Below are positions 8,303-62,617 of a DNA stretch of 64,000 nucleotides, in pieces. Both the position numbers and the translations under genes were made by a program. The stretch is taken from positions 568 to 64,567 of the forward strand of contig OMPX01000053.1 in NCBI GenBank assembly GCA_900313115.1, read 5' to 3'. The notes under the pieces were generated by a model. It worked only from the letters and a program-made list of their open reading frames with translations, had not been told where the DNA came from and searched no databases. Numbering within the stretch: the first letter of the stretch is position 1; each line of letters begins with the position of its first letter. Source of the DNA: an uncultured bacterium. GTDB taxonomy: Bacteria > Cyanobacteriota > Vampirovibrionia > Gastranaerophilales > Gastranaerophilaceae.

Positions 8303-8408
8303 TTATTATATTTACCCCACACTGATATTAAAATAATATAAATAAAATCTAAAAAATTAATTATTTATATTATACTTTTAGTGTTAGATACGTAAAATGG
8401 AGAGAGAA

Positions 8409-9215
8409 ATGATAGATAAAACTGCAATAATTGATCCGTCAGCTCAAATTGACGAAACAGCAATAATTGGTCCTAATGTTGTAATAGGAAAAAATGTCAA
8501 AATCGGTGCAAGAACAAGAGTAATTGCAAATGCATACATTGAGTATTCAGAAATCGGTGAAGATTGTACAATAAGCCCGTTTGCTACTATTGGTTCTGAA
8601 CCTCAGGATTTGGGATACAAAGGAGAAGAAACAAAAGTTGTTATTGGTAACGGCACTATAATCAAGGAAAATGTGACAATTCACAGAGGTGCAGCTTGCG
8701 GTGATTTTACAACAAGAGTTGGGAACAAGTGTTTACTGATGGTTGGGTCACACGTTGCTCATAACTGTGTTCTTGAAGATGAAGTAATTTTGGCAAACTT
8801 AGTTACTTTAGGCGGACACATTCACGTCGGATTCGGTGCATTCATCGGTGGTATGAGTGTATTCCATCAAAATATCAGAATCGGGAAGATGGCAATTATC
8901 AGCGGATTTTCTGCAGCAAGACAAGATATTCTTCCGTTCTCTAAAGGCGAAGGCAGACCTCCTGTAGCAAGAGGTTTGAATGTAGTTGCACTAAAGAGAA
9001 GAGGATATTCAATGGACGATATCAATATCGCAAGACATGCGTTTAAGTATTTGATATCTGACGAATATAATACAACTCAGGCTATTGAAAAAATCAGAGA
9101 AGACGGAAAAATAAACTCTATTGTCGAAGAAATGATTGAGTTTGTTCAGACATCAAAAAGAGGGGTGACTCTAAAAAACCATAAAACAGGTTTCAGAAGT
9201 CTTGATGAAGAATAG
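8409..9215 (+). CDS. lpxA: acyl-ACP--UDP-N-acetylglucosamine O-acyltransferase
   Basis: Left-handed beta-helix hexapeptide repeats followed by an LpxA-type helical C-terminus. The ORF opens at 8397, but ATG 8409 follows the SD GGAGAGAG. Confidence 0.85.
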   Translation: MIDKTAIIDPSAQIDETAIIGPNVVIGKNVKIGARTRVIANAYIEYSEIGEDCTISPFATIGSEPQDLGYKGEETKVVIGNGTIIKENVTIHRGAACGDFTTRVGNKCLLMVGSHVAHNCVLEDEVILANLVTLGGHIHVGFGAFIGGMSVFHQNIRIGKMAIISGFSAARQDILPFSKGEGRPPVARGLNVVALKRRGYSMDDINIARHAFKYLISDEYNTTQAIEKIREDGKINSIVEEMIEFVQTSKRGVTLKNHKTGFRSLDEE

Positions 9216-9232
9216 TAAAATAACGTATAACC

Positions 9233-9265
9233 AAAAAAGAGAAGTTTTAGAACTTCTCTTTTTTT
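9233..9265. terminator. bidirectional intrinsic terminator between lpxA and the U32-like gene
   Basis: AAGAGAAGTT / TTAG / AACTTCTCTT stem-loop flanked by an A-run and a T-run. Confidence 0.75.
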
Positions 9266-10925
9266 ATGCCATTTTGTTTAATAATTTTGTAAGTAATACT
9301 GAAATATAGCAAGGTGCAAGATTTGAAAAGTCAAATACAAACTCGTTTATTCCTGCATTAATATAGGTGTCAAGATTATCAAAATCTTGCAGAACCTGAT
9401 CTTCAAACATGTGCATTCTGCAAAAACCATCGCAAGTAAACGGTATAATCTTTTTTAAAGACGGATCTTTGAGTGCAAAATTCCCTGTATGACAAGGTGC
9501 AGGGCATCTTAGCCTTGAAATTATTGCGCTGTCGTTGTTTAGAGGGCAAAGTCCTAAAGATGGAATTTTTTTATTTCCCGCAATTGTTAATTTCCGCTCC
9601 GGAATATTATTTTTTAGAGCTTTTAGAGTTTTTAAAATATTTTCAACTTTTTCAAATGACGTAAAATCAATTGATTCAATCGGGTGAAGTTGATTTAGGC
9701 AATTGATTGACATACTGTTAAGCAAATCTATCCCCTGACCGATTTCAATAGGTATATCAGCCAAATCCGGATCATTTATCACTGCCCAAAAATATCCGAT
9801 ATTATTGATAATTAATAAATCAGGTTTTGGGTCAAGCAGAATTAAGCTTTTACTGTATTCATAAACTCTGTCAAAATCTCTTTCAATAAGTATTCTCGGG
9901 GTAGAAAGATGAAATTTTACACCACTTGATGCACAAAAACGCTTAACTTTATCTATTATTTCACTGTAACTGCTTGTTGATAAGTCTTTTGTTGAAAGTA
10001 ATTCTCCGTATTCAATTGAGTAAATCGGGTTATATCTTAATCTTTTCAGATATCGTTTTAGTCGATTTATGTGTTCTAATCTTGATAATCTTAAATTTAT
10101 TCTTGGCAGAGGTAAATCATTGTTTTTAATCCGTTCTAAAACTTCAGGTTTTATACGAGAACGTGTGACTGACCATTCGTGTTTTAGTATATGTCTGCTG
10201 AATTTGAAATCTTTTCCGTCAGTGCTAATCATTTCGCCGGAGAAATGATTTGTTTGATAAATACTTTTCCTTACGTGCTTGAACGGTAGTTTTTGATTTT
10301 TAAACATTTTAGGCTTATCGAGAATTTTTTCAACAAGTTCAATACCTTCCAATATATCATCCGAAGTTTCAAACTTACCTTTTATTACAACATTATCAAT
10401 AGCCCCAAGTGCTTGAATATCTTCCGCACACCAAGGTAAATTATCAGAATCTATTGCTAAGGATAAATTTGTGTATTTTTTTATTTTTGCAATATTTTTC
10501 ATATAGATTTCTTCCGTAATAATTATTTGATCAATTTTATGGAAGTTGTTAAGAAAATCTATACCTTGCAGATTGTGAATATCAAAGTAAGAATCTGCAA
10601 TAACTTTAAATGGAAGTTTAAAACATTTTATCCCTTCTATGATTGCAAAACTATTGATAAAAATACCATCAATTTTGGTTGTTTTAAGATATTTTATAAA
10701 TTTCTTTATTTCTTTCAGGTCTTCTTCCGAAATATTGTGTTTGAAGTTAAGATAGATTCGTGAGTTATTTTTGTGAGCCTCTTCAATAAATTCATTAACA
10801 TATTCAAAATTGTTGTTAAGAAATTTATGATGATAAACATAGAAATCACGGCATTTTACGTGAGGAATAAAGGCTTTTATATCCTCAGGTTTTTTAATAG
10901 GTGCAATAACTTCAATCTCTTTCAT
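9264..10925 (-). CDS. peptidase U32-like family protein (distant, two-lobed)
   Basis: The N-terminus (IEVIAPIKKPEDIKAF...IYLNF...IDGIFINS) resembles the U32 barrel and a similar second half follows. C-terminal Cys cluster LCP...RCPAPCH...CDGFC. Confidence 0.5.
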   Translation of the reverse strand: MKEIEVIAPIKKPEDIKAFIPHVKCRDFYVYHHKFLNNNFEYVNEFIEEAHKNNSRIYLNFKHNISEEDLKEIKKFIKYLKTTKIDGIFINSFAIIEGIKCFKLPFKVIADSYFDIHNLQGIDFLNNFHKIDQIIITEEIYMKNIAKIKKYTNLSLAIDSDNLPWCAEDIQALGAIDNVVIKGKFETSDDILEGIELVEKILDKPKMFKNQKLPFKHVRKSIYQTNHFSGEMISTDGKDFKFSRHILKHEWSVTRSRIKPEVLERIKNNDLPLPRINLRLSRLEHINRLKRYLKRLRYNPIYSIEYGELLSTKDLSTSSYSEIIDKVKRFCASSGVKFHLSTPRILIERDFDRVYEYSKSLILLDPKPDLLIINNIGYFWAVINDPDLADIPIEIGQGIDLLNSMSINCLNQLHPIESIDFTSFEKVENILKTLKALKNNIPERKLTIAGNKKIPSLGLCPLNNDSAIISRLRCPAPCHTGNFALKDPSLKKIIPFTCDGFCRMHMFEDQVLQDFDNLDTYINAGINEFVFDFSNLAPCYISVLLTKLLNKMA

Positions 10926-10961
10926 ATTTAGTATTTTACTAAATTATTCCTCAGTTCGCAA

Positions 10962-12257
10962 CTAGAAAACAAATTTATCATAAATAGCATCAACATTTCT
11001 CAGATATTCATTTTGTTGAAAACAGTCATCTAAATCATCAGTTGATAAAACCTCTAATACGTCATCATCGTGTTCAAGATTATATCTAAAGTTTCCATCG
11101 TTTTCAAAAGCATCAAGAGCATTTTTTTGTACTATTCTGTATGCCTCTTCTCTTGTCAGGCCATTTTCTATTAAAGCTAAAAGTATTTTTTGGGAATAAA
11201 CAATACCGCCAAACAAGTTTGTGTTCTTTTTCATGTTATTTTCTTTAACAACTAGATTAGATAAGACATTATTTAGCCTATTAAGCATAAAGTCAATGAG
11301 AGTGAGAGAATCAGGAAAAATAATTCTTTCTGCCGAACTGTGTGAAATATCTCTTTCGTGCCATAAAACAACATTTTCCATTGCTGTATTGACGTTGTTT
11401 CTGACGACACGGGCAAGACCGCATAAGTTTTCTGAAAGAACTGGATTCTTTTTGTGCGGCATAGCTGATGAGCCCTTTTGATTCTTTGAGAATCCTTCTT
11501 CAACCTCTCTGACTTCTGTTCTTTGCAGGTGTCTTATTTCTGTAGCAATTTGCTCAATTACAGATGCTATAAGCCCTAAACTTTGCATAAATCTGGCATG
11601 ATAATCTCTTGCTATAATTTGAGTCGAAATTCTTGCAGGTTTAAGCCCGAGATTTTCGCAAACTATTGGTTCCAGTTCAATCGGAAGATTACTGTATGTT
11701 CCGACAGGACCTGATATTTGCCCTACTCTTATTTCTTCTGCTGAATCAACAAAGTTTTTATAAACACGTTCGAGCATATCATATATATTTAGCAGTTTTA
11801 GCCCAAAAGTCGTTATTTCAGCGTGTATACCGTGAGAACGCCCGATACAGGCAGTGTATTTGTATCTTTGCGCCATTATTCTGACTGTTTCAAGAAGTGT
11901 GTCAAAATCATCTCTGATAATTTCAGAACTATCTTGAATTTGCAGGGCAAAAGCAGTATCTATTACATCAGAACTTGTCATTCCGACATGCATGTATCTT
12001 GATAGCTTAGGACCGAGTGATTCATTTACACAGGTCAAAAATGCTATTACATCGTGATGTACTTCTGCTTCAATTTTATCAATTCGCTCTATAGAGAACT
12101 TTGCTTTTTTGCGTACTTTTTCTATTTCATCTTTGGGGAAATGACCTAATTGGGCATATCCGTCACAGACTGCAAGCTCTACTTTTAAATAATATTCAAA
12201 TTTTGAATTTAAGTCCCAAATTTTTGCCATTTCGGGACGAGAATATCTGTCTATCAT
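10962..12257 (-). CDS. purB: adenylosuccinate lyase
   Basis: MIDRYSRPEM start and the fumarate-lyase signature GSSAMPHKKNP. Confidence 0.97.
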   Translation of the reverse strand: MIDRYSRPEMAKIWDLNSKFEYYLKVELAVCDGYAQLGHFPKDEIEKVRKKAKFSIERIDKIEAEVHHDVIAFLTCVNESLGPKLSRYMHVGMTSSDVIDTAFALQIQDSSEIIRDDFDTLLETVRIMAQRYKYTACIGRSHGIHAEITTFGLKLLNIYDMLERVYKNFVDSAEEIRVGQISGPVGTYSNLPIELEPIVCENLGLKPARISTQIIARDYHARFMQSLGLIASVIEQIATEIRHLQRTEVREVEEGFSKNQKGSSAMPHKKNPVLSENLCGLARVVRNNVNTAMENVVLWHERDISHSSAERIIFPDSLTLIDFMLNRLNNVLSNLVVKENNMKKNTNLFGGIVYSQKILLALIENGLTREEAYRIVQKNALDAFENDGNFRYNLEHDDDVLEVLSTDDLDDCFQQNEYLRNVDAIYDKFVF

Positions 12258-12274
12258 AAGATAATTGTATAATT

Positions 12275-12309
12275 AATAGTGAATAGTGAATAGTAGATAA
12301 TGAATAGTG
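12275..12309. repeat. tandem heptamer array (AATAGTG x5, two units degenerate) in the purB leader
   Basis: AATAGTG AATAGTG AATAGTA GATAATG AATAGTG read directly, 18-52 nt upstream of the purB ATG. Confidence 0.9.
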
Positions 12310-12384
12310 TTTAATAAAATTTACAATTTACTCAGATTGACAATTCAAACAGGTTTGGCAAAACAACATATATAGTTACCAAAA

Positions 12385-12855
12385 TTATTTATGATAAGTC
12401 TCATTATTTAGAATTTTAAAGGCTCTATATATTTGTTCAATAAGTATAAGTCTTGTAAATTGGTGCAAAAAAGTCATTTTAGATAAACTAAGCTTAAAAT
12501 TTGCTCTTTTAGAGACCAAACTTGATAGTCCGCAAGAAGAACCAATTACAAACACAAGTTCAGAAACACCGTCATTTGTTATCTCAAATATTTTTTGAGA
12601 AAATTCTTCTGAAGAAAGTTGTTTTCCTTTTATTTCCATCGTTATAACAAAATCTGTCGGTTTAATTAATGATAATATTTTTTCGCCTTCCTGATCAAGA
12701 ATTTTTTCCGTAAGATTTTCATCTCGAATTTCTATTGGCTGAAGCTCAGCAATTTCTACGGCTGCATATGGCGTTAGTCGTTTTAAAAACTCATCAATAC
12801 CGTCTTTAAGAAATTTATCTTTAATCTTACCTAAGGCTACAATCTTAATTTTCAT
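12385..12855 (-). CDS. rlmH: 23S rRNA (pseudouridine1915-N3)-methyltransferase
   Basis: 156-aa SPOUT protein, MKIKIVALGK...EQIYRAFKILNNETYHK. Confidence 0.95.
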   Translation of the reverse strand: MKIKIVALGKIKDKFLKDGIDEFLKRLTPYAAVEIAELQPIEIRDENLTEKILDQEGEKILSLIKPTDFVITMEIKGKQLSSEEFSQKIFEITNDGVSELVFVIGSSCGLSSLVSKRANFKLSLSKMTFLHQFTRLILIEQIYRAFKILNNETYHK

Positions 12856-13826: not shown

Positions 13827-15860
13827 TTATAATTTTATACAAGTAATCAATATTTTTTTAATATCATCCACTTCTGTACCTTTGTAATTAATGTGAGATG
13901 ACGTTATTGGTTGTTTGTAATCATATTTATTAATAGAACGTGACTCAACAATAACAGATGGCGGAAGAATTGACCATTTATACAATGATGTTGACATCCT
14001 TCTGTAGAATTTATCTAACCACTCTGTTTTTTGTTCCTTAGTAACTTCGTTATTTTTCTCATATAAAAACTTAGAGTCAATCATATCCTGATAATATTCG
14101 TGTTTGTTTTCAATTCTCCAAATCACTTCGTCTAAAAATTCATACGGCATAAGAGCATCTTCTGCAATCAAAGGTTTTCCTGTTCTTTCATCAATCGCAA
14201 GTTCTGCCCCCGGACGTTTTAGAATAATAGCTTCAGGTATAGCATTTTTCACTTCTCTATTTTTATTCAACCATCTTGCAAAAGCGAACAACTTCGTTTT
14301 TGGCACATCCGCAATTGGTGCAAATCCGCCTGACATATCACCATTAATGGTTGCATACCCCATATATAATTCTGATTTGTCGGAAGTTGCAATAGGAACA
14401 CAGCTTGCAAATTCATTCGCTATGCCCCAAAGATACATTGCTCTTGAACGAGCTTGAATATTATCTTGAGTAAAAGATTTTTTATAACGGCAATCCCACT
14501 TAGATTCAACCTGTTCAAATAAATTATTAAACATTCTGTTCGTTGTATCTACCATATCTTTTATCGGCATTTCCGCAAAATTAATTCCCAAATTTTCTGC
14601 AAGTTGTTCAGCATCACTCCTGCTTTCTTTGCTTGTAATTTTAGATGGCATACTTACACCAAAAACATTTTCTTTACCTAATGCATCAGCAAGCAAAACG
14701 GCACACACGGTAGAATCAAGCCCGCCAGACAGTCCAAGACAAGCTCTTTTTAAACCATTTTTACTAAAATAATCACGAATACCCTGCGTAATTGTTTTAT
14801 ATGTTCTTTCTAAATCATTCTCATAGTCAAGTGTAAAGACTTTTTCTTCCGTTAAAGATTTTTCAAGACCTTTAGTCAAAGGATAAACTTTACCTACAGC
14901 TTGAAGAGGATTAACAATTAAGAATTGTTCTTCAAAAGATTTAGCTCTTGCTAAAAGCTTGCCGTCCCTGTCAAAAACCCTGCTTGAACCGTCAAAGGAA
15001 CTATTATCAACAGCACCTACCTGATTAACATAAACCATTGGAGTTTTATAATTTTCTGAAATAAATGCCAACATATTATGTTTTAACTGTTCTTTTTTAG
15101 CCCTGCTTGGAGAGGCTGAACAGTTCACAAATACATTTGGCTTTTCTTTTGATAACACATCAATAGGATCAATATTATACATATTTGACGAGAAAAATGC
15201 TCTGTTATTCCAACAATCTTCACAGATTGAAAAACCGTATTTTAAACCGCCAATAACATTGGTTTTAGGACAATCTTTAATATTTTCCTCATCGAACAAT
15301 GCCAATGTTTCAGACGGTTGTGAACCAATCACGGGAGACGGTTCGATATATCTGTAGTCATTAAATTCAGAATAATTCGGAAGCAAAGATTTCCTGATTA
15401 TATGCTGAATTTTTCCGTCATACATAACAGCTAAAGAATTATAATATTTCTTACCTGTATTATATTTACCCCTTCTTGGTTCAACAAAACCAACAACTGC
15501 TGCAGTTGTCGTTGTGAGTTTTGCTATTTCTTTTAACCATTTGAGATTTTCTTCTACAATAATCGGATGCCTGTCTATTGTATCTTCTATCGGATAACCC
15601 ATAATTGCAAGTTCAGGAAACACAACCATATCCAAATCTAAAGCTGTTGCATAGGCTATATATTTCATTATTTTTTTTGAATTATATTCTATATCGCCGA
15701 CAATCGGATTCAATTGCGCTAACCCCAAAGAACCCTGTTTGAATGAAGAAACAATTTCTTTTAATTCAACAATAATATCTTTTAAATTGCTATTGCTATC
15801 TTTATCCTGTAAAATTAAATCGGCAATCTCTGATAATTCATACAATCTTTTTGTGTTCAT
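13827..15860 (-). CDS. nadE: glutamine-dependent NAD+ synthetase
   Basis: N-terminal CN-hydrolase domain (LAQLNPIVGDIEYN) plus a synthetase domain with the SGGLDS P-loop. About 40 aa of N-terminal extension. Confidence 0.93.
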   Translation of the reverse strand: MNTKRLYELSEIADLILQDKDSNSNLKDIIVELKEIVSSFKQGSLGLAQLNPIVGDIEYNSKKIMKYIAYATALDLDMVVFPELAIMGYPIEDTIDRHPIIVEENLKWLKEIAKLTTTTAAVVGFVEPRRGKYNTGKKYYNSLAVMYDGKIQHIIRKSLLPNYSEFNDYRYIEPSPVIGSQPSETLALFDEENIKDCPKTNVIGGLKYGFSICEDCWNNRAFFSSNMYNIDPIDVLSKEKPNVFVNCSASPSRAKKEQLKHNMLAFISENYKTPMVYVNQVGAVDNSSFDGSSRVFDRDGKLLARAKSFEEQFLIVNPLQAVGKVYPLTKGLEKSLTEEKVFTLDYENDLERTYKTITQGIRDYFSKNGLKRACLGLSGGLDSTVCAVLLADALGKENVFGVSMPSKITSKESRSDAEQLAENLGINFAEMPIKDMVDTTNRMFNNLFEQVESKWDCRYKKSFTQDNIQARSRAMYLWGIANEFASCVPIATSDKSELYMGYATINGDMSGGFAPIADVPKTKLFAFARWLNKNREVKNAIPEAIILKRPGAELAIDERTGKPLIAEDALMPYEFLDEVIWRIENKHEYYQDMIDSKFLYEKNNEVTKEQKTEWLDKFYRRMSTSLYKWSILPPSVIVESRSINKYDYKQPITSSHINYKGTEVDDIKKILITCIKL

Positions 15861-19122: not shown

Positions 19123-19144
19123 TCACTCAACAAAATTTTAAATA

Positions 19145-19180
19145 AAAAAGAGGTACATTTGATTGATGTACCTCTTTTTT
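19145..19180. terminator. bidirectional intrinsic terminator
   Basis: GAGGTACAT / TTGATTG / ATGTACCTC stem-loop, with an A-run before and T6 after. Confidence 0.85.
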
Positions 19181-19194
19181 ATATTGTAAATTTA

Positions 19195-20769: not shown

Positions 20770-21362
20770 TACTCAGCATCTCCTACAACAGACTTTGCTT
20801 CAATAACAACAGGTAAACCTCTGACTACACAAAGAACAATAGCAACTAATGCTAACCAATATCCTAATCTGTACATAGGTCCTGAATATGCTTCCAAGTA
20901 TGGTACTTTAGATGCTACTATGACAATAAATGCCAACACTTTTGCAACTGCATAAGTTATTCTCATAAACTTTGAACCTGTAATCCATTTACATACCGGA
21001 TTTTTTTGCATACCAAATGGGGTTAAACCCTTTTCCATTGCTGCACTTCTAATTGTGTCCGTAACAAAACCTCTTGTAATAGCAACAAGCGGAAACCATA
21101 TCGGGAGCCAAGACATTACTGCAAAGACAATCCAATATGTATTTTCGACTATTCTGTCACTCATAATATCAAGAAGAGCACCAAATTTAGATTCTTCATG
21201 GAATTTTCTGGCAACGTAGCCATCAAGACCATCTAAAGCAAAGGCTAAAATAGTTAATATAAGCGCCCAAATATAAGCTGTTGAATTATATTGACAAGAT
21301 ACAATCAAATACACACCGATAAACATTAAAAATACTCTAAAAATTGTTATAAAATTTGCCAC
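20769..21362 (-). CDS. CDP-alcohol phosphatidyltransferase family protein
   Basis: DGLDGYVARKF(x7)GALLDIMSDR matches DG(x2)AR(x8)G(x3)D(x3)D. Multi-pass membrane protein. Confidence 0.85.
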   Translation of the reverse strand: MANFITIFRVFLMFIGVYLIVSCQYNSTAYIWALILTILAFALDGLDGYVARKFHEESKFGALLDIMSDRIVENTYWIVFAVMSWLPIWFPLVAITRGFVTDTIRSAAMEKGLTPFGMQKNPVCKWITGSKFMRITYAVAKVLAFIVIVASKVPYLEAYSGPMYRLGYWLALVAIVLCVVRGLPVVIEAKSVVGDAE

Positions 21363-22465: not shown

Positions 22466-23323
22466 TCAAGAATTAAGCAATATATTATCTATCAATCTTA
22501 CACCTTGCACTCTGCATGCAATAAGCACAAGCGTGTTATCATCGGCAACTTCTTTATCCTCAAGGTTATCTTTATCAACAAACTCAAGATACTCAAGCTC
22601 GTGCGCATCCGTTAAAAATGAAAACGCAGTTTCTTTAAGTGCATCAATATTATTAATCCCTTTATCATAACAAGATTTTATATTATTCAAAATCTTGCTG
22701 AGTACGAGCGCATCTTCATGTCCTTTTTCATCTAAATATTTATTTCTTGAAGACAAAGCCAAACCGCTTTCCTCACGAACAATAGGACAACCTATTAACT
22801 CTATCGGCATATTCAAATCTTTAACCATTTTTCTTATAATAATCAACTGTTGTGCATCTTTTTGCCCAAAGAAACCATAGTCCGCCTGAGTAATATTAAA
22901 CAGTTTCATAACAACAGTACAAACCCCGTCAAAATGTCCTACTCTTGATTTGCCACATAACTTATTTACAAAGAAAAACGGCGGTACAACATACGTCAAA
23001 GTGTCATTAGAAAGTCTTTGCCCTTCTCCGTACATTTCATCAGCAGACGGTGCAAAAACGATATCCGCTCCGATACTTTCAGCTAATTCAACATCAGCCT
23101 CAAGTGTTCTTGGATATTTGTCAAAATCCTCAGATGGTCCGAATTGTATTGGATTAACAAACACTGACACAATTACTTTATCACATTTTTCAACAGCTTT
23201 TCTGATTAGTGACGCATGTCCTTCGTGCAGAGCGCCCATCGTAGGAACTACACCTATCGTAAGCCCTTGTTTTTTCCACTCTTTTACATTTACCCCAACT
23301 TCTGATATCTTATGAATTAACAT
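22466..23323 (-). CDS. panC: pantoate--beta-alanine ligase
   Basis: VPTMGALHEGHASLI HIGH-type motif; length 285 aa. Confidence 0.97.
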   Translation of the reverse strand: MLIHKISEVGVNVKEWKKQGLTIGVVPTMGALHEGHASLIRKAVEKCDKVIVSVFVNPIQFGPSEDFDKYPRTLEADVELAESIGADIVFAPSADEMYGEGQRLSNDTLTYVVPPFFFVNKLCGKSRVGHFDGVCTVVMKLFNITQADYGFFGQKDAQQLIIIRKMVKDLNMPIELIGCPIVREESGLALSSRNKYLDEKGHEDALVLSKILNNIKSCYDKGINNIDALKETAFSFLTDAHELEYLEFVDKDNLEDKEVADDNTLVLIACRVQGVRLIDNILLNS

Positions 23324-23328
23324 TATAT

Positions 23329-24165
23329 TTACCCCAATAACTTTTCTTTCTCTTCTTCTTTTAAATTAAAAACTTCTTTTTCAGACGGATATTTTTCGTC
23401 TTTAATATCTTGACAAAACTGTTTTGCCGAATCCAATATTATTGACTTCAAATTAACATACTTACGAACAAAAGTAGGCTGATAATCAGAAAATTTGCCT
23501 AACATATCGTCAGAAACCATTACATGACCGGAACAAAATCTCCCTGCACCAATTCCAATTGTAGGTACAGATATATTTTCAGTTATATATTTTGCACTTT
23601 CCTCAGGAACAAGCTCAAGGACAATCGCAAAAACTCCTGCTTCTTCTAACTTTTTAGCTTCGTCTAATATTTTATTTACTGCATCTACTGTCTTGCCCTG
23701 AATTGTATGACCACCGATTTGATTTGATGATTGCGGTGTATAACCCAAATGCCCTAAAACAGGGATTCCCGATTGAGTACAATGTCTTATAAGTTTTATT
23801 AAATAATCATTACATCCCTCAATTTTAACAGCATTAGCACCTGCTTTAACCATTTCGCCAATATTTGTCATTGCCTGTTCAATAGATGTGTTATAACTCA
23901 TAAAAGGCATATCCCCGACAACTAAGGCTCTATTTACCCCTCTTGCAACTGCGCCGGTAAAAATAGTCATTTCATTCATCCCGACAGATTGCGTTGAATT
24001 ATAACCCAGTGCAACATTTGCTAATGAGTCCCCGACTAATATAATATCAACACCCGCTTCATCAAGATATTTTGCGGTTGAATAGTCATAAGCAGTTAAA
24101 ACGGCAATTTTCTCGCCGTTGTTTTTCATATTTTGAATAGTATTTACTGTTGTCTTTTTTATCAT
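23329..24165 (-). CDS. panB: 3-methyl-2-oxobutanoate hydroxymethyltransferase
   Basis: LTAYDYSTAKYLDEAGVDIILVGDSL and the KIEG motif. Confidence 0.97.
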   Translation of the reverse strand: MIKKTTVNTIQNMKNNGEKIAVLTAYDYSTAKYLDEAGVDIILVGDSLANVALGYNSTQSVGMNEMTIFTGAVARGVNRALVVGDMPFMSYNTSIEQAMTNIGEMVKAGANAVKIEGCNDYLIKLIRHCTQSGIPVLGHLGYTPQSSNQIGGHTIQGKTVDAVNKILDEAKKLEEAGVFAIVLELVPEESAKYITENISVPTIGIGAGRFCSGHVMVSDDMLGKFSDYQPTFVRKYVNLKSIILDSAKQFCQDIKDEKYPSEKEVFNLKEEEKEKLLG

Positions 24166-25470: not shown

Positions 25471-25555
25471 ACTGTTAAATCCTTGTTCATACTATATACA
25501 AATTTTGAGGAATGAATTGTTGTGACTCAAATATTTCAATACACACAACTTACTC

Positions 25556-25572
25556 ATTTACCCATTTACCCC
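25556..25572 (-). repeat. two tandem copies of the GGGGTAAAT-family motif just after the pxpA stop
   Basis: The plus strand reads ATTTACCC ATTTACCCC, 1 nt from the stop codon at 25574-25576. Confidence 0.9.
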
Positions 25573-26521: not shown

Positions 26522-27205
26522 ATGAATAAACACACAAAATCATTATTTATTACCGCTACAGGTACTGATATCGGTAAAACATACATATCAGGATTGATTG
26601 TAAAAAAAATGAGAGAATCAGGTTTTAACTGCGGATATTACAAGCCTGTTCTCAGTGGCGCTATTTTGCAAAACGGCATTATGATTCCGGGAGATTGCAA
26701 GCACGTTGTTGATGTTTCAGGTCTTAAAATTGAACCTGCAAAATGTCTTTCGTATTGTTTTGAAGAAGCAGTTTCTCCTCACCTTGCTTCAAAAAGAGCA
26801 GGGGTAAATATTGGTATTAATAAAATAAAATCAGATTATGCAAATCTGTCAAAAGAATTTGATTACATGTTAATTGAAGGCGCAGGTGGGATAACTTGTC
26901 CGATAAAAGATGATAAATATCTTATGTGGAATTTGATAAAAGATTTAGAGGTAAATGTCTTAATTGTTGCAGACGGCGGACTCGGAACCATAAATTCTGT
27001 TCTTACAACGGTGGAATATATAGAAAAACGAGATATAAAAATTCAGGGACTTGTTCTCAATAACTATGATAAATCAAGCTTTATGCACAGAGATAATCTT
27101 GAAATGGTTGAAAAAATGACAGGCTATAAAGTTGTTTCAACCGTCAAGAAAAATGAAATAGATATAGATATAGATAAAAATATTTTGAAAGGATTGTTTG
27201 AATAA
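26522..27205 (+). CDS. bioD: dethiobiotin synthase
   Basis: LFITATGTDIGKTYISG P-loop; adjacent to and overlapping bioA. Confidence 0.9.
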   Translation: MNKHTKSLFITATGTDIGKTYISGLIVKKMRESGFNCGYYKPVLSGAILQNGIMIPGDCKHVVDVSGLKIEPAKCLSYCFEEAVSPHLASKRAGVNIGINKIKSDYANLSKEFDYMLIEGAGGITCPIKDDKYLMWNLIKDLEVNVLIVADGGLGTINSVLTTVEYIEKRDIKIQGLVLNNYDKSSFMHRDNLEMVEKMTGYKVVSTVKKNEIDIDIDKNILKGLFE

Positions 27206-28551: not shown

Positions 28552-28574
28552 ATTGAAGGATTCTTCAACAAAAA

Positions 28575-28615
28575 AATAACGACGCAGATTGCAAAATCTG
28601 TGTCGTTATTTTACA
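28575..28615 (+). terminator. intrinsic terminator after bioA
   Basis: 16-bp stem AATAACGACGCAGATT / AATCTGTGTCGTTATT (one G-U pair) followed by a T-run. Confidence 0.8.
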
Positions 28616-28631
28616 TATTTATTGATTACTC

Positions 28632-28653
28632 ATTTACCCCGGTTATTTACCCC
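28632..28653 (-). repeat. two copies of the GGGGTAAAT motif abutting the permease stop codon
   Basis: The plus strand reads ATTTACCCC GGTT ATTTACCCC. The last C is the first base of the stop codon complement (28653-28655). Confidence 0.9.
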
Positions 28654-34036: not shown

Positions 34037-34040
34037 TCAT

Positions 34041-34835
34041 TTACCCCTCAGAAACAGGAGAAACTCCCCAATTTAGCTTATTTCTCAGGACAGGATAGAA
34101 ATTATAATCTTTTGGGAAAGCAAGTTTTGCTCTATATTCATATTGTTCAATTGTGACTTCTTTTAGTTCTGTAATTTTTTCCTGACCATCAGCAGAGACA
34201 TCAAGGACATCTTCCGTACTTTTAATAACAATTTTCTCGGTTGCAGGAACGACAAGAGGTCTTGCAGTCATTGTGTGTGCGCAAATTGGTACAATTACCA
34301 TTGCTTCCAATCTTGGATAGACAATAGGTCCTCCTGCTGATAAACCGTATGCCGTTGAACCGGTTGGAGTTGCAACAATTATCCCATCTGCTATATAGTC
34401 ACTGACTAATTTATCATTGATAAACAAATTAAACTTTGATGTTCTGATTGAAGAATGTCCTTTCACAACAAAATCGTTCAGAGCCGATAAATTTTCCGAT
34501 TTCAACATTAATCGTTCTCTGACTTTATAATCTTCATTTCTGATAATATCACCCAATGATTTTGCATCACTGTGAGTAATTAAGGATAAAAAACCTAATC
34601 TGCCTGCATTTATACCCATAACAGGGGTTGAATATTTCGCATAAAATCTTGATGATTTTAGAACTGTACCATCCCCGCCTACAGCGCAGACCAAATCATA
34701 ACCATTTTTCAAATTATCAATATCCAACAAATCATAACTAATACCATTTTTATCAAGATTTGATTTAATGGATTCAATTATACTTTCTGTAGATTTTGCT
34801 TTTCTGTTTATAACAACTGCAAGCTTTTTTGTCAT
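34041..34835 (-). CDS. nadK: NAD+ kinase
   Basis: GGDGT motif (AVGGDGTVLK) and TPTGSTAY motif. Confidence 0.95.
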   Translation of the reverse strand: MTKKLAVVINRKAKSTESIIESIKSNLDKNGISYDLLDIDNLKNGYDLVCAVGGDGTVLKSSRFYAKYSTPVMGINAGRLGFLSLITHSDAKSLGDIIRNEDYKVRERLMLKSENLSALNDFVVKGHSSIRTSKFNLFINDKLVSDYIADGIIVATPTGSTAYGLSAGGPIVYPRLEAMVIVPICAHTMTARPLVVPATEKIVIKSTEDVLDVSADGQEKITELKEVTIEQYEYRAKLAFPKDYNFYPVLRNKLNWGVSPVSEG

Positions 34836-34880: not shown

Positions 34881-34920
34881 ATTTACCCCTATTTACCCCT
34901 ATTTACCCCTATTTACCCCT
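34881..34920 (-). repeat. four perfect tandem copies of the decamer AGGGGTAAAT (plus strand ATTTACCCCT)
   Basis: Read directly, between the TPR gene stop (34925) and the nadK start (34835). Confidence 0.98.
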
Positions 34921-46417: not shown

Positions 46418-46702
46418 ATGGAAAAAGTTAGAGCAAGTCATATTTTGGTTAAAACAGAAGAAGAAGCTAATGATTTGTTAGCAAAGTTAAATGATGGTGC
46501 AGATTTTGGCGAGTTAGCACAAGAATATTCATTATGTCCATCAAAAAGAGATGGCGGTGATTTACGATTCTTTGGCAGAGGTATGATGGTTAAACCTTTT
46601 GAAGATGCAGCTTTCGCTCTTGAAGTAGGTCAAATTTCTGCTCCCGTTGAAACTCAATTCGGATGGCACTTAATCAAGTTAACTGATAAAAAAGAAGCAT
46701 AG
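46418..46702 (+). CDS. ppiC: parvulin-type peptidyl-prolyl cis-trans isomerase (single domain)
   Basis: 94 aa, ASHILV...CPSKRDGGDLRFFGRGMMVKPFEDAAF...GWHLIK. Confidence 0.92.
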   Translation: MEKVRASHILVKTEEEANDLLAKLNDGADFGELAQEYSLCPSKRDGGDLRFFGRGMMVKPFEDAAFALEVGQISAPVETQFGWHLIKLTDKKEA

Positions 46703-46728
46703 TGGTAAATGGGGTAAATGGGGTAAAT
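46702..46728 (+). repeat. three tandem 9-mers GTGGTAAAT GGGGTAAAT GGGGTAAAT starting in the ppiC stop codon
   Basis: Read directly; 13 nt upstream of the next gene's GTG start. Confidence 0.95.
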
Positions 46729-55056: not shown

Positions 55057-56922
55057 ATGGGATATTTAGAAAACAAGTTTGACATAATTGTAGCGGGTGG
55101 CGGGCACGCAGGTTGTGAGGCTGCGATATCTGCAGCAAGATTGGGGGCAAAAGTTCTGCTATGTTCACTAAATTTGGACAATATTGCTTTAATGCCTTGT
55201 AACCCTGCTATTGGCGGTCCAGCTAAATCTACATTGGTTAGAGAAATTGATGCACTCGGCGGTGTTATGGGAGAAGCTGCCGATGCTACATACGTTCAAA
55301 TGAAGATGCTAAATTCTTCTAAAGGTCCTGCCGTTCGTGCTTTGCGTGCTCAATCTGATAAAAAAGAATATATGGCATATATGAGAAATGTCATAGAAAG
55401 TACGGATAACATATATCTAAAGCAGTGCTGTATAACGGATTTGCTCGTTAAAGACGAAAGGATTGTTGGGGCAGTCGATGAATATGGGAATGAATATACT
55501 GCGCCGGTTGTAATCTTAACAACAGGAACATCTTTAGACGGAAGAATTTTTATCGGGCTAAAATCCTACAGAGCAGGACGATTGGGAGAAATGCCCGCAA
55601 TCGGTTTGTCTGACTCTTTGAGGAATTTAGGTTTTACCGTAAAGAAATTAAAAACAGGTACACCGTGCCGTGTTGATAAGAGAACGGTTGATTATTCAAA
55701 AATGACAGTTCAACCGGGAGATGAAAAACTTCATTTTTATTCGTTCAAACCAAACAGACCAACAAGACCACAAGTTCCTTGTTATCTGACAAGAACAACC
55801 GAAGAAACGCATAGAATTATAAAAGAAAATCTTGACAAATCTCCAATGTATCAGGGATTAATACACGGAGTCGGACCAAGATATTGCCCTTCGATTGAGG
55901 ATAAAATTGTTCGTTTTGCTTCAAATCCTTCTCATCATATTTTTATTGAACCTGAAGGATTGGGTACGTATGAACTTTATATTCAGGGGTTTTCAACAAG
56001 CTTACCGGCTGATGTACAGGTAAAGATGGTTCGTTCTCTTCCGGGACTTGAAAAGGCGCATATAATTAAACCTGCTTATGCAGTGGAATATGATTATATT
56101 CCTGCAATTCAGACAACACATTCTTTGATGACAAAAAGAATAAAAGGGCTTTTCTGTGCAGGACAAATCAATGGTACGAGCGGATATGAAGAAGCCGCAG
56201 CTCAAGGACTATTGGCAGGTATAAATGCATACAATTATATAAATGGCTCAGAAATGCTTGAGTTATCAAGAAGTTCTTCGTATTTAGGCACACTTGTTGA
56301 TGATTTGGTTACAAAAGATATAGAAGAGCCATACAGAATGTTAACTTCTCGCTCAGAGTACAGATTGTTATTAAGACAGGATAATGCTGATGCAAGATTA
56401 ACAGAAATCGGTTATAAAGTCGGACTTGTTGATGATTTACAATATAATCGTTTTAGAGCAAAACAGGCAGAAATTAAAAGAGAAATAGAAATATTATCTG
56501 ACACAAAAGTATCTGCAACATCTGAAGTGAATAATATTTTGGCAAAATACGGTGAGCATATTGACAGAGGTATTCGTTTGGCGGAATTGTTAAAACGACC
56601 AAATATTGATTATAACGTGATAAAAGAACTCAATTATGAAACCGCTATAAGAGAATTATCTGATGATGTTACTGATGAAGTTGAAGTCTTAATAAAATAT
56701 GACGGATACTTAAAACGTCAGGAAATACAAGTTGAGCAGGCAAGCAAACTTGAAAAATATCACATCCCTGACAATATTGATTATTCAAAAATCGACCATA
56801 TATCAACCGAAACAAAGGAAAAATTAGAAAAAATCAGACCAAAAACATTAGCTCAAGCGGCAAGAATTGGCGGAGTAAAACCTGCTGATATATCAGTGTT
56901 GATGGTTATGCTAAAGGGGTAA
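55057..56922 (+). CDS. mnmG: tRNA uridine 5-carboxymethylaminomethyl modification enzyme
   Basis: FDIIVAGGGHAGCEAA FAD motif and full-length GidA similarity. The ORF opens at 55027, but ATG 55057 gives the canonical N-terminus. Confidence 0.97.
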   Translation: MGYLENKFDIIVAGGGHAGCEAAISAARLGAKVLLCSLNLDNIALMPCNPAIGGPAKSTLVREIDALGGVMGEAADATYVQMKMLNSSKGPAVRALRAQSDKKEYMAYMRNVIESTDNIYLKQCCITDLLVKDERIVGAVDEYGNEYTAPVVILTTGTSLDGRIFIGLKSYRAGRLGEMPAIGLSDSLRNLGFTVKKLKTGTPCRVDKRTVDYSKMTVQPGDEKLHFYSFKPNRPTRPQVPCYLTRTTEETHRIIKENLDKSPMYQGLIHGVGPRYCPSIEDKIVRFASNPSHHIFIEPEGLGTYELYIQGFSTSLPADVQVKMVRSLPGLEKAHIIKPAYAVEYDYIPAIQTTHSLMTKRIKGLFCAGQINGTSGYEEAAAQGLLAGINAYNYINGSEMLELSRSSSYLGTLVDDLVTKDIEEPYRMLTSRSEYRLLLRQDNADARLTEIGYKVGLVDDLQYNRFRAKQAEIKREIEILSDTKVSATSEVNNILAKYGEHIDRGIRLAELLKRPNIDYNVIKELNYETAIRELSDDVTDEVEVLIKYDGYLKRQEIQVEQASKLEKYHIPDNIDYSKIDHISTETKEKLEKIRPKTLAQAARIGGVKPADISVLMVMLKG

Positions 56923-56925
56923 ATA

Positions 56926-59749: not shown

Positions 59750-59767
59750 CTTTTTTAAACCTGAAAA

Positions 59768-59808
59768 AGCACACACAGTAGTATTTAATACTGTGTGTGC
59801 TTTGTTTT
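59768..59808. terminator. bidirectional intrinsic terminator between the peptidase gene and recR
   Basis: 13-bp stem AGCACACACAGTA / TACTGTGTGTGCT, with an A-run before and TTGTTTTAT after. Confidence 0.85.
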
Positions 59809-59822
59809 ATTATTTTCTTATA

Positions 59823-60425
59823 CTATATTGATAATTCTCTTCTTCCTTCAATCGCTTTTGCAATTGTTACTTCATCTGCGTATTCTAAATCAGCACCGAC
59901 AGGAAGCCCAAAGGCAATTCTTGATATTTTTATACCAAACGGCTTTATTAATTTTGTTAAATAAAGACTTGTAGCTTCCCCCTCAACTGATGGAGATAAA
60001 GCTAAAATAATTTCCTGAACACTTTCATTAGTAAGTCGGGTTAACAACTCCTTTATACGAATATCATCAGCTCCAATTCCTTCCATTGGAGAAATCAAGC
60101 CTTGCAGTACATGATAAAGTCCGTTATATTCATTTGTTTTTTCAATAGCGATTAAATCTTTTGTCTCCGCAACAACACAAATGATTGATCTGTCACGTTT
60201 AGTCGATTGACAAATTTCACACGGACTTGTATTAGATAAATTAAAACATATCTCACAAGCACACGTTTGAGATTTTGCGTCAACAACAGCGTCAGCAAAC
60301 TTCTTTACCTCTTCAAGAGGCATTTTAAGTATCTGAAAAGCCATCCTCTGAGCCGATTTTGGTCCAACAGAGGGAAACTTTTGGAAATATTCAATAAGTG
60401 TTGCTATTGGTTTTGGATAAATCAT
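59823..60425 (-). CDS. recR: recombination protein RecR
   Basis: HhH N-terminus, C4 zinc finger (CEICFNLS...CEIC) and Toprim domain. Confidence 0.97.
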
Positions 60426-60434
60426 TTTTATACC

Positions 60435-60767
60435 TTAGCATAATCCCGGAATACTGATACCACCTGTTACTGACTTAATCTTTGCTTCCATTTCTGCTGA
60501 TGCTTTATCAGAGGTTTGCTTGATTGCTGTAATTATAGCATCTTCCAATGTTTCAATAGTATCTTCATCAACTGACTCAGGATTTTCCGGATTAATTAAT
60601 TCTGCAGATAACTTAATAGACTTAAATTTACCTTGTCCGTCACAAATAACCTTAACTGCACCACCAAGCGCTTCACCTTCCACCTCTTGTTCTGAAAGTT
60701 CTTTTTGAACATCTTTAAGTCTTTTTTGGATATTTTGTGCTTGTTGCATCATTTGCATAATATTCAT
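60435..60767 (-). CDS. ybaB: nucleoid-associated protein YbaB/EbfC
   Basis: MNIMQMMQQAQNIQKRLKDVQKEL...; 110 aa, immediately upstream of recR. Confidence 0.93.
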   Translation of the reverse strand: MNIMQMMQQAQNIQKRLKDVQKELSEQEVEGEALGGAVKVICDGQGKFKSIKLSAELINPENPESVDEDTIETLEDAIITAIKQTSDKASAEMEAKIKSVTGGISIPGLC

Positions 60768-60865
60768 TAAAATTTCCTCCTTAAATATTTTACCATCAGG
60801 ATTGTATTTTTCTAATATTTCCCAAATCTATTACTTTATTGCGTATTTTATTATACAATAAAAAT

Positions 60866-61696
60866 ATGGAAATAAAAAGTTATCTTAATGGAAGTGTAAA
60901 GAAGGGTTACTTGCTAAGATGGCAAAGAATGCCATTATCTGTCTTTATAGCCCCAATGAAATTCTACTCAAAACAAGGAGAAGATTTAGCATACAGGAAA
61001 TTAGTGCTTCAGGCATTAGAAACTTGGGAAAGAGCAAGCGAAGGCTTGGTTCAGTTCCATGTTGTAGATAACTTACTAAGTTCACAAATAAATGTAGATT
61101 GGAGAAGGGTAGATAGAAAAGCTCTCGGTCACTGTCAATATAACTATGATACCTGGATGCGCTTGTATGGAGCAGAAGTGTCCATTGGGCTTACAGATGG
61201 CAAAATTCATCAAGCATACGACTCACAAGCAGAAGTTTATCACACTATACTTCACGAAATAGGGCATGCTCTCGGTCTGGGACACAGTCCATATGATACA
61301 GATATTATGTACACACCTCACAAATACGGCGTTGTGGAATTATCCGAAAATGACATTTTCTCAATCCAATGTCTTTATTCTTTCCCTGCAGGGAAAAGTG
61401 TAAAAGAAATTGGCATGCAATATTCTATTCCTACAAATGACGACATAGATTTAGTTATTAGAAAACTTGATGAAAAATATGCACAAGAAATAGAAGAAGA
61501 ACAAGGAATTACAAAAACATCAGATAACAATGCAGCTACGGAATATCCATCTGTTATTAAAACAGAACGGGATTTACTTGATGAAACCACGGGTATTGGG
61601 GACATCAGACGTTACAATATGATGATGCAAAATATCGGACTATCAAAAAAAATGCAGGATTTTTTCAATAGCCAACACAGAGATAGTGGGAAATAA
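60866..61696 (+). CDS. matrixin-like (M10, metzincin) zinc metalloprotease
   Basis: HEIGHALGLGHS (HExxHxxGxxH) with a downstream DIMY Met-turn. The ORF opens at TTG 60839. No obvious signal peptide. Confidence 0.75.
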   Translation: MEIKSYLNGSVKKGYLLRWQRMPLSVFIAPMKFYSKQGEDLAYRKLVLQALETWERASEGLVQFHVVDNLLSSQINVDWRRVDRKALGHCQYNYDTWMRLYGAEVSIGLTDGKIHQAYDSQAEVYHTILHEIGHALGLGHSPYDTDIMYTPHKYGVVELSENDIFSIQCLYSFPAGKSVKEIGMQYSIPTNDDIDLVIRKLDEKYAQEIEEEQGITKTSDNNAATEYPSVIKTERDLLDETTGIGDIRRYNMMMQNIGLSKKMQDFFNSQHRDSGK

Positions 61697-61730
61697 TAAA
61701 AAAAAGGGGTTGAAAATTTTCATCAACCCC
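61693..61730 (-). terminator. intrinsic terminator after rplA
   Basis: The minus strand reads GGGGTTGA-loop-TCAACCCC followed by T8. Confidence 0.85.
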
Positions 61731-61758
61731 AAAGTATCAACCAACAATCTTTGTTGAA

Positions 61759-62484
61759 TTACCCAACTATTTCTTTAACTTCAGCAGCTAAACCTTTACT
61801 GTCTAACTTTATGCTTGGTCCCATAGTTGTAGTAATATAAACTGACTTAACGAATGTACCTTTTGTTGAAGATGGTTTTGCTTTAATAATAGCATCAGCC
61901 AAAGTAGCAAAGTTCTTAACGATATCGTCAGCTGAGAATTGAACTTTTCCAACAGGACAGTGAATCATACCTTGCTTGTCAGCACGGAATTCAACTTTAC
62001 CTGCTTTAGCAGCCTTAACTGCACCTGCAACATCTAATGTAACAGTACCTGTCTTAGGGTTTGGCATTAAGCCTTTTGGACCTAACACTCTACCTAATTT
62101 ACCTAACATACCCATACAATCAGGTGTTGCAATCAATGTATCAAATTCAAACCAACCGCCTGAAATCTTATCAATAATATCTTCAGTACCGGCAAAGTCT
62201 GCACCTGCCTGAGTTGCTTCATTAACTTTAGCACCCTTAGCGATAACACAAACTCTGACTTCTTTACCTAAACCTGCAGGTAAAACTACTGTAGATCTGA
62301 TTTGTTGATCAGCGTGTTTTACATCAATACCTAATCTCATGTGGCATTCAACTGTTTCATCAAACTTTGCAACTGCCTTAGAGATTTCTTGCAATTTTTC
62401 AACTGCTGATTTTATAGTAGATGGTTGTTCAAAACCTTCTAATAATTCATTTACTTTTTGTTGTCTTTTTGTTAATTTTGCCAT
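61759..62484 (-). CDS. rplA: 50S ribosomal protein L1
   Basis: [10 protein letters not shown]..., full-length L1 similarity; follows rplK. Confidence 0.98.
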
Positions 62485-62499
62485 TTTTATTTTCCTTTC

Positions 62500-62528
62500 A
62501 TGGTCGTAACGGACTGATGTCCTTCCAT
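62500..62528 (-). promoter_or_regulatory. conserved leader hairpin immediately upstream of the rplA SD
   Basis: The minus strand reads ATGG-AA-GGAC-ATCA-GTCC-GTTACGA-CCAT followed by GAAAGGAAAATAAAAATG. Paralogous to the hairpin at 63060-63087. Confidence 0.55.
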
Positions 62529-62536
62529 ACTTTAAA

Positions 62537-62568
62537 GATACTAAGATACTGAGGCACTAAGGCACTAT
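62537..62568. repeat. tandem octamer array in the rplA leader
   Basis: GATACTAA GATACTGA GGCACTAA GGCACTAT read directly. Confidence 0.9.
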
Positions 62569-62581
62569 ATTATTCCGTTCT
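62569..62581 (-). promoter_or_regulatory. 13-mer box AGAACGGAATAAT shared with the rplK leader
   Basis: Identical 13-mer at 63117-63129, in the same position relative to the repeats, hairpin and SD. Confidence 0.5.
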
Positions 62582-62602
62582 CTTTTTGAGGTTTGATAAT
62601 AT

Positions 62603-62617
62603 ATTTACCCCTACCCC
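62603..62617 (-). repeat. GGGGTA GGGGTAAAT motif directly after the rplK stop
   Basis: The plus strand reads ATTTACCCC TACCCC, abutting the stop codon at 62618-62620. Confidence 0.9.

Follow-up and report, generated by a model that had tools for sequence, protein, structure and literature searches.

A sharply defined 9-mer at the stop codons of a Gastranaerophilales genome and its possible role as a sense-read gene-end signal

The usual view is that hairpin terminators or Rho mark where bacterial genes end, and the dispersed repeats found at gene ends are normally palindromic. What, then, is a short unstructured word doing on and just behind stop codons, copy after copy? This question is raised by a 64,000-nucleotide (nt) stretch of contig OMPX01000053.1 (positions 568 to 64,567, forward strand; assembly GCA_900313115.1), hereafter called the window, which comes from an uncultured, non-photosynthetic gut bacterium of the Gastranaerophilales (Melainabacteria), an uncultured order sister to the photosynthetic cyanobacteria. 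The word is the 9-mer GGGGTAAAT. A preliminary description, made from the letters of the window, had reported at least 18 exact copies where fewer than one would be expected, most of them intergenic or on stop codons and nearly all in the sense of the adjoining gene, and had suggested that the word acts at the level of RNA. We followed up these claims in the window itself, in further sequence of the same species, in other strains, and in related species. The reading that we favor, tentatively and from sequence comparison, is that GGGGTAAAT(R), where R is a purine, may be a cis signal that has expanded in this lineage, is read along the direction of transcription, and marks where reading frames end on their 3′ side.

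A sharply defined word on and behind stop codons

A search of both strands returned exactly 18 copies, each at the position and on the strand originally given, and these group into 13 loci. Dinucleotide-preserving shuffles set the expectation at 0.42 copies (maximum 3), which bears out the earlier estimate of fewer than one, and the enrichment analysis against a Markov background that the preliminary description had proposed placed GGGGTAAAT first among all 9-mers of the window (18 observed vs 0.47 expected, third-order background). One-mismatch forms were not enriched in the window (15 sites vs ~12 expected), and the word is thus sharply defined. Its immediate surroundings are biased in composition, with A or T at the base before it (−1) in 17 of the 18 copies, a purine at the base after it (+10) in all 18, and C scarce around the aligned copies; written as RNA with a flanking A on either side, it reads (A)GGGGUAAAU(A). 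Beyond the 9-mer core, the alignment of the 18 copies revealed no conservation, and the flanks are unrelated. The word is thus no part of anything longer that is repeated, and the possibility raised at the outset, that they might be fragments of such a repeat or of a miniature inverted-repeat transposable element, came out negative.

The copies are concentrated where there is little room for them. The window has 33% G+C and is 93.6% coding, with only 4,074 of its 64,000 nt (6.4%) intergenic, and it is in this small share or on stop codons that 14 of the 18 copies (78%; 9 of the 13 loci) lie, as had been claimed. Intergenic runs of GGGG are almost all motif (12 of 15). At 8 of the 13 loci the 5′ G of the motif falls between −4 and +11 from a stop codon on the same strand; random placement gave a mean of 0.10 such loci and never produced 8 in 20,000 trials. 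Random placement confined to intergenic DNA likewise failed to account for this stop adjacency. The spacers in question are 39 to 133 nt long, yet the motif always takes their opening nucleotides. The TAA inside the motif is itself the stop codon in panB, nadK, and mnmG, as first described, and at a permease gene the motif and the TAG stop share one base, the opening G of the former being the last base of the latter. The further statement that the motif elsewhere starts 0 to 5 nt past the stop holds for pxpA (1 nt) and for a TPR gene (5 nt) but not for ppiC (8 nt) and rplK (6 nt), where the gap before the exact copy is filled by a degenerate or partial unit (GTGGTAAAT and GGGGTA, respectively) that abuts the stop.

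The same picture extends beyond the window. Its MnmG protein is encoded identically on several gut-metagenome contigs of the ENA, and the nearest MnmG proteins among species-representative genomes belong to metagenome-assembled genomes of Gastranaerophilales (Melainabacteria), at 75–89% identity. By way of contigs with identical proteins, we extended the same-species sequence to ~96 kb; a lookup for this extension with the last window gene as called (217 amino acids) gave no match. These ~96 kb hold 17 loci, namely 11 that are stop-adjacent and in sense, 5 that are coding and in sense, and a single intergenic antisense one (position 8310), and about one in six genes (~15%) of the host species has GGGGTAAAT on or just past its stop. 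The downstream gene is co-directional at 8 of the 11 stop-adjacent loci, and the three remaining sites (mnmG, nadK, and the permease) are convergent gene ends without a downstream gene. Two of these junctions, of 3 nt at mnmG and 4 nt at nadK, carry the motif in a space that no hairpin fits.

Orientation follows the gene. The original count for the window, 17 of 18 copies in gene sense with the copy at 8310 as the exception, was confirmed in coordinates and strands. That the four coding copies are in sense as well is true and carries little weight, since coding GGGG runs are biased in this direction anyway (73 sense vs 19 antisense); the coding copies, mostly read as Gly-Val-Asn, would be by-products on the reading favored here. 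Within the window alone, the strand of the motif switches at ~38.6 kb, where the GC skew also switches (skew minimum at ~38–40 kb). The coding-strand GC skew is, however, alike in the four gene classes defined by strand and by side of the flip (0.105, 0.143, 0.150, and 0.125), so that the flip merely reflects gene direction, and no DnaA-box cluster was found in the window. Moreover, the motif follows the gene in each of the five cases (bioD, rplK, histidine kinase, MetRS, and gcvH) in which a locus sits within or directly behind a gene that opposes the local trend. The motif thus tracks transcription and not the chromosome strand, in agreement with the preliminary description.

Individual sites and their variation among strains

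The gene names used here were borne out by Pfam for panB, nadK, mnmG, pxpA (LamB_YcsF), the ArsB/CitMHS-type permease, ppiC, rplK, and bioD, and those of nadE, panC, and the TPR gene held as well. For strain comparison, we used contigs of other samples that are 97–98% identical to the window. Every single-copy stop-adjacent site is unchanged in all strains that cover it (5 to 10 per site), and the arrays act as variable-number repeats among these same strains, with periods that vary by locus (6, 8, 9, 10, 13, and 14 nt). The variable arrays could serve as ready-made strain markers.

Three copies supply a stop codon themselves. The one at the end of panB (23322–23335, − strand) has its G-run 8 nt before the ATG of panC, for which it can double as ribosome-binding site. 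The nadK copy (34039–34047, − strand) occupies a convergent junction with a 4-nt spacer and is identical in 10 of 10 other strains, and the mnmG copy (56916–56924, + strand), which also lies between convergent genes, with a spacer of 3 nt, is unchanged in 7 other strains. Past the permease gene, two copies 13 nt apart (28632–28653, − strand) are found, the first of them read with the stop as TAG GGG TAA; in strains L088 and L089 the TAG is replaced by CAG, so that translation ends at the TAA of the motif and the protein is two residues longer. This pair is placed between the stop and a canonical hairpin-plus-T terminator, which means that the motif lies in the 3′ untranslated region there and is not itself the terminator.

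The other stop-adjacent sites are as follows. One nucleotide past the pxpA stop begins an array of period 8 (25550–25572, − strand; GGGGTAAAT GGGTAAAT GAGTAAGT), whose exact copy lies at 25564–25572 and whose length differs among strains. The TPR gene is followed, 5 nt after its stop, by four exact units of period 10 (GGGGTAAATA; 34881–34920, − strand), of which other strains have 4 or 5 in four versions that include AGGGTAAAT, GGGTTAAAT, and GTGGTAAAT, with G in place of the A spacer of the window. Past ppiC, an array of period 9 (46702–46728, + strand) consists of GTGGTAAAT overlapping the TAG stop and then two exact units, after which come the ribosome-binding site and the GTG of the gene downstream; 4 other strains carry this array unchanged. 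The rplK gene, which opposes its neighbors, ends in a GGGGTA partial unit right after the stop and then an exact unit (62603–62617, − strand), identical in 7 other strains. Downstream of this motif, the rplK–rplA spacer also holds a short 8-nt tandem (ACTAAGGC / AAGATACT, ~3.5 copies, 62535–62567). Three more sites lie in the ~96-kb extension, all in sense: the end of a histidine-kinase gene, where TAA is directly followed by GGGGTAAATAGGGGTAAATAGGGGTAAAA and the array has 2 or 3 units depending on the strain; the end of the MetRS gene (TAAAGGGGTA GGGGTAAAT), with 2 or 4 units; and the end of gcvH, which reads TA[G GGGTAAAT]AAATGGGGGTAAAT.

Coding copies are found in nadE (gene 13827–15860; copy 15464–15472, − strand, in the frame xGG GGT AAA T), near the start of panC (23288–23296, − strand, GGG GTA AAT, that is, Gly-Val-Asn), in panB (23932–23940, − strand, Gly-Val-Asn), and in bioD (26801–26809, + strand, Gly-Val-Asn), a gene that opposes its neighbors; all four are in sense. 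The bioD copy is polymorphic among strains (GGGATAAAT, GGGGTAAAA), and a second bioD site at 26948 reads GAGGTAAAT in the window and is the exact motif in four other strains. On contig L230, part of the ~96-kb extension, a coding array of period 9 (GGAGTAAAT GGGGTAAAT GGGGTAAAT; 3688–3714, − strand) encodes (Gly-Val-Asn)x3 within the open reading frame 3287–3724, as codons 6–14 of a 145-amino acid protein without Pfam match. The lone antisense copy (8305–8318, − strand) lies 8 nt beyond the stop of gene 6044–8302, in the 94 nt that separate this gene from the next, both on the + strand, and is kept in 5 other strains with one flank change.

Other features of this sequence deserve mention in their own right. 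Three of the copies (8310, 15464, and 23327) share a 14-mer, GGGGTAAATATAAT, for which 0 occurrences are expected and which includes a perfect TATAAT; its positions are 8305–8318, 15459–15472, and 23322–23335, all on the − strand, in settings as different as the lone antisense intergenic copy, the interior of nadE, and a site across the panB stop and the panC start. The runner-up among over-represented words, TCCGGGAG / CTCCCGGA, has 6 copies vs ~0.4 expected (26686, 45014, 45197, 50667, 51345, and 58372), all coding and in one codon phase on either strand. Hairpins with A-runs and T-runs that are shared by convergent gene pairs (9216–9263, 19123–19194, 28552–28652, 59750–59822, and 61697–61758) look like bidirectional intrinsic terminators, which suggests that the lineage uses canonical termination. 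About 3 kb past the right end of the window, contig L001 carries a 24-nt tandem repeat of 13.5 copies (20932–21254) in a gene for a 355–520-amino acid protein without Pfam domains, and it is at this coding repeat that most assemblies of the host species break. No tRNA or tmRNA genes were found in the window.

Recurrence in related species and on a viral contig

The word recurs across the order. Among 80 related species, stop-proximal GGGGTAA is found 17 times in sense vs 2 times in antisense, at non-orthologous genes, and at 16 of the 17 it runs on as A and then T, G, or A; accordingly worded, GGGGTAAA(T/G) is enriched just past stops, in sense. Measured from the first base of the stop codon, the distances are −4 at three loci, where the TAA of the motif is the stop, and otherwise +2 to +25. 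Control words that contain TAA reach about one third of the stop-proximal share of GGGGTAA and show no such strand ratio. Viewed from the gene ends, a G-run at −6 to +12 is present at 30 of 1,291 ends in the relatives, and 12 of these 30 are GGGGTAAA followed by T, G, or A. The form TA[G GGG TAA A...] is frequent, and variant forms occur in individual species (GGGGTAAAG in L032 and GGGGTAAT in L006); a k-mer screen of the relatives, which at the 20-kb scale had too little power, did not resolve species-specific variant words.

The word is also present on a virus-derived sequence. A contig of the IMG/VR collection (L246; 34% G+C), which encodes a large terminase subunit, carries eight GGGGTAAATTA units with a period of 11 (8184–8271) that start on the TAG that closes the terminase gene; the following gene has one copy, on its own TAG stop (9211–9219), and TA[G GGGTAAAT] is thus seen at two consecutive gene ends. 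Judged from its sequence, this pattern would fit a signal used in gene expression. L246 was the only contig with a host-like pattern among the matches of a viral-collection scan for tandem pairs, which gave 53 matches vs 28, 78, and 29 for three control words of the same composition and hence revealed nothing special to the motif. A metagenome scan for motif pairs returned 120 matches, mostly unrelated repeats of other organisms, and was not informative.

Two further sequence families were noticed. The first, which is unrelated and is represented among the metagenome matches, is a repeat family of ~80 nt that holds two or three GGGGTAAAT words (…CAGTGGTTCTTAACCTGGGGTAAATTTACCCCTGGGGTAAATTTCATCTTCCAAGGGGTAAATTTACTGAACCATAAATTGCAGC…) on contigs with ~39–41% G+C, among them L096, L100, L105, L118, L121, L150, L168, L177, and others (JGI24021/24022/24158, Ga0210059); this family probably represents an element dispersed in the genome of a different organism. 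The second is a conserved unit in three relatives (L019 18700–19120, − strand; L013 near 20269; L021 near 15571), which consists of a promoter-like site, TTGACT-N17-TATAAAAT, and then ~55 nt from GGGGTAAATG to a hairpin with a T-run. At L019, the sole locus read downstream, about three direct repeats of ~60 nt follow (TTTTTTATCATGTTAC...CCGGTTT). The start of this unit resembles the flank of the copy at 8310 (AGTGTGGGGTAAAT), and the unit, which has no Rfam match, may be a small RNA or leader.

Possible functions and competing explanations

What might such a word do? With neither a G+C-rich hairpin nor a T-run, it is not an intrinsic (Rho-independent) terminator. No dyad symmetry was found in the motif or its flanks, and its G-run is predicted to be unpaired more than other G-runs (0.42 vs 0.26). 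A signal read in the sense of transcription most simply explains the word itself, its position at stop codons, its orientation, the types of junction at which it sits, the site upstream of a terminator, and the recurrence across the order. We infer that such a signal would act either on RNA, where it would be a single-stranded G-run with a tail of A/U, or on the non-template strand while transcription is under way, and that a trans-acting factor would recognize it. The likeliest outcome would be an RNA end that is formed or protected right behind the stop codon, whether by a hairpin-free pause or termination site, by an endonuclease processing site, or by a bound factor that blocks exonucleases. 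This would be especially useful in a very compact genome, where convergent genes may be separated by 3–4 nt, too little for a hairpin terminator. Tandem arrays would have arisen by replication slippage and been tolerated, or favored as several binding sites. A bolder version is possible, if doubtful: that the Gastranaerophilales use (TA)GGGGTAAAT as a hairpin-free signal, on or behind stops, read by a dedicated factor that sets or protects mRNA 3′ ends, and that this system has expanded to ~15% of genes in the host species. Such a reader would be a ribonuclease, some other protein that binds RNA, or a small RNA rich in C (one that contains AUUUACCCC), and the system would parallel in bacteria the RNA termini that proteins define in chloroplasts.

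Partial precedents for a sense-read signal exist. At the footprints of chloroplast PPR proteins and at the STAB-SD of Bacillus, a bound factor blocks exonucleases and sets RNA termini. These are, like the sites described here, hairpin-free, sequence-specific sense-strand sites in intergenic RNA, but PPR sites are longer, STAB-SD lies in 5′ leaders, each factor serves few sites, and no binder of GGGGTAAAT is predicted. The stabilizing or coupling role proposed for STRR repeats (PMC2670836) and the REP elements, both described below, are precedents as well. So are the RNase E hotspots and small RNAs derived from 3′ untranslated regions, with RNase E-dependent cleavage 2 nt past stop codons in Synechocystis, Salmonella, and Vibrio (PMC8682795). 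The likeness lies in an RNA-level site right after the stop codon, in a set of organisms that includes a cyanobacterium; the difference is that the RNase E signature is loose and A/U-rich (A at −3, U at +2), whereas GGGGTAAAT is exact and G-rich.

Several results weigh against a sense-read signal. Extra purifying selection was not detectable among the strains, where 2 of 93 motif columns are variable vs 87 of 2,762 other intergenic columns, a comparison of low power. Beyond the species, motif sites are not kept at orthologous gene ends: at mnmG, the motif is absent from this position in 78 of the 80 related species, lies 25 nt past the stop in L007, and gives way to GGGGTAAAG-like ends in L055 and L053. 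Density is very uneven, from zero copies in ~22 kb each of L008, L009, and L011 to 5–7 copies in L080, L083, and L031, where a conserved reader should give a more even density. Rfam gave 0 matches at gathering score in the window, folding found no common structure at the motif sites, and no candidate trans-acting factor was found. Canonical hairpin-plus-T terminators are present in the window, so that the signal is not needed for termination generally. Finally, one intergenic copy, that at 8310, is antisense to the two genes beside it, both of which oppose the local trend.

The main rival, possible although we consider it rather unlikely, takes the word to be a functionless or selfish, slippage-prone short dispersed repeat that persists only at the 3′ margins of genes, the places where so compact a genome tolerates it. 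Its internal TAA would make stop codons natural birthplaces, as at the three sites where this TAA is the stop and at the permease, where the CAG/TAG polymorphism shifts the stop by two codons. This explanation accounts for the lineage expansion and the slippage-type arrays as well as for the missing measurable constraint: the number of units and the degenerate units change among strains that are 97–98% identical, periods differ by locus, the (Gly-Val-Asn)x3 array of L230 is coding, motif columns lack extra constraint, and density is patchy in close relatives, with non-orthologous sites between species. A strand-symmetric process combined with tolerance does not, however, predict 11:1 sense in the host species and 17:2 in the relatives. 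Nor does it predict placement at the first nucleotides of the 39- to 133-nt spacers, a single copy at most loci, or the recurrence of the word at unrelated gene ends in many species.

The families to which such a repeat might be likened differ from it in several respects. The STRR heptamers of heterocystous cyanobacteria, reportedly described by Mazel et al. in 1990 with units such as CCCCAGT (ACTGGGG on the other strand), resemble GGGGTAAAT as short, non-palindromic G4/C4 units that lie in tandem in non-coding DNA beside genes within the cyanobacterial phylum. The unit here is, however, 9–10 nt with periods of 6–14 nt in place of a tandem 7-nt unit, and most loci are single, with at most one exact copy plus a partial unit at 6 of the 11 stop-adjacent ones; to our knowledge, neither position at stop codons nor gene orientation is a defining STRR trait. 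REP elements can shield upstream mRNA from 3′ exonucleases, and the REP/BIME elements of enterobacteria and pseudomonads share with GGGGTAAAT the character of lineage-specific dispersed repeats that are intergenic, mostly downstream of genes, and often clustered; they are, in contrast, imperfect palindromes of 20–40 nt that form hairpins and are linked to RAYT transposases, whereas GGGGTAAAT has neither dyad symmetry nor a common fold. For STRR, a role in transcript stability or in translational coupling has been suggested (PMC2670836).

Less probable still is pairing of the G-run with the tail of 16S rRNA in the manner of a Shine-Dalgarno (SD) sequence, by which terminated ribosomes would be held for coupling, standby, or mRNA shielding; we regard it as unlikely. 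With a single G-U wobble, GGGGU can be paired to the CCUCC tail, the downstream gene has the same direction at 8 of the 11 stop-adjacent loci, GGGGG is the ribosome-binding site of gene 4933–5367, and between panB and panC the G-run 8 nt before the ATG is the sole ribosome-binding sequence. An SD-like AGGGG element, as the preliminary description had suggested, nevertheless fits this one junction only. SD spacing (5–10 nt before a start) is found at 1 of the 11 stop-adjacent loci; the mnmG, nadK, and permease sites are convergent and have no downstream gene, and elsewhere the G-run is 19–50 or more nt from the next start, which has an AAGGAG-type site of its own. The ribosome-binding consensus is AAGGAG, and no more than 45 of 1,295 true ribosome-binding windows contain GGGG. 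Such pairing also leaves the invariant TAAAT half without a reason. An rRNA gene, sought for a 16S complement to the motif, was absent from every locus fetched.

Largely refuted, and in our judgment very improbable, is a DNA-level oriented or uptake signal, be it an uptake sequence, a Chi-like hotspot, or an FtsK-orienting KOPS-like word. An exact G-rich 9-mer at about one locus per 5–6 kb, with variant forms in related species and, within the window alone, a strand flip that goes with the GC skew, does have the look of one. But the flip is accounted for by gene orientation, a replication rule is contradicted by 5 of the 17 loci and a transcription rule by only one, and no origin/terminus-switching orientation was seen; a replication-oriented word of Chi/KOPS type was rejected on these grounds, together with the lack of a DnaA-box cluster. 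Chi and KOPS are, furthermore, mostly coding, in proportion to coding sequence, whereas here 6.4% of the sequence accounts for 78% of the copies. Like GGGGTAAAT, the uptake sequences of Neisseria (DUS) and of Pasteurellaceae (USS) are exact 9- to 10-mers in strong excess, enriched in non-coding DNA and with species-level variants; they show no orientation bias and no downstream-of-gene bias, and their mismatched forms are enriched (PMC1939737). The intergenic loci of GGGGTAAAT, in contrast, have the sense ratios given above instead of equal orientations, lack a mismatch excess, and are stop-adjacent and often tandem. The ~96 kb revealed no competence genes.

Hardly any weight remains for a back-up stop module, in which an in-frame GGG-TAA follows a leaky TAG or arrays with a period not divisible by 3 stop ribosomes in all frames: TAG GGG TAA does occur at the permease, at GcvH, once in L080, and twice each in L032 and L246, in-frame stops at +2 follow TAG at double the rate seen for TAA (14.4% vs 7.0%), and arrays of period 10 or 11 put TAG and TAA in three frames, but the +2 excess consists of motif copies and overlapping ATGA starts and leaves no signal general to TAG genes, a 33% G+C genome gives chance stops in all frames within a few codons, and the first unit is out of frame at pxpA, rplK, histidine kinase, and MetRS. 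Its variant, with RNA or DNA G-quadruplexes, would apply to the four-unit TPR array (34881–34920), a textbook motif with a predicted RNA quadruplex at −26 kcal/mol vs −0.7 without, but this is the sole one of the 11 loci with four runs of at least three G, the others having 1–3.

As the preliminary description had supposed, no described element with this sequence or combination of properties was found: the word appears in no relevant paper of the searchable literature, and a search for work on repeats or competence in Melainabacteria gave nothing. Its kin by kind are short dispersed intergenic repeats (STRR, REP, and uptake sequences), and as far as sequence can tell, GGGGTAAAT fails every testable set of their defining features. 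If the word is a neutral repeat, it would show neatly how compactness of the genome and a TAA within the word together steer a repeat to stop codons. If it is instead a signal, an exact, unstructured, stop-tied 9-mer would suggest that RNA ends in the Gastranaerophilales are made, processed, or protected in a sequence-specific manner.

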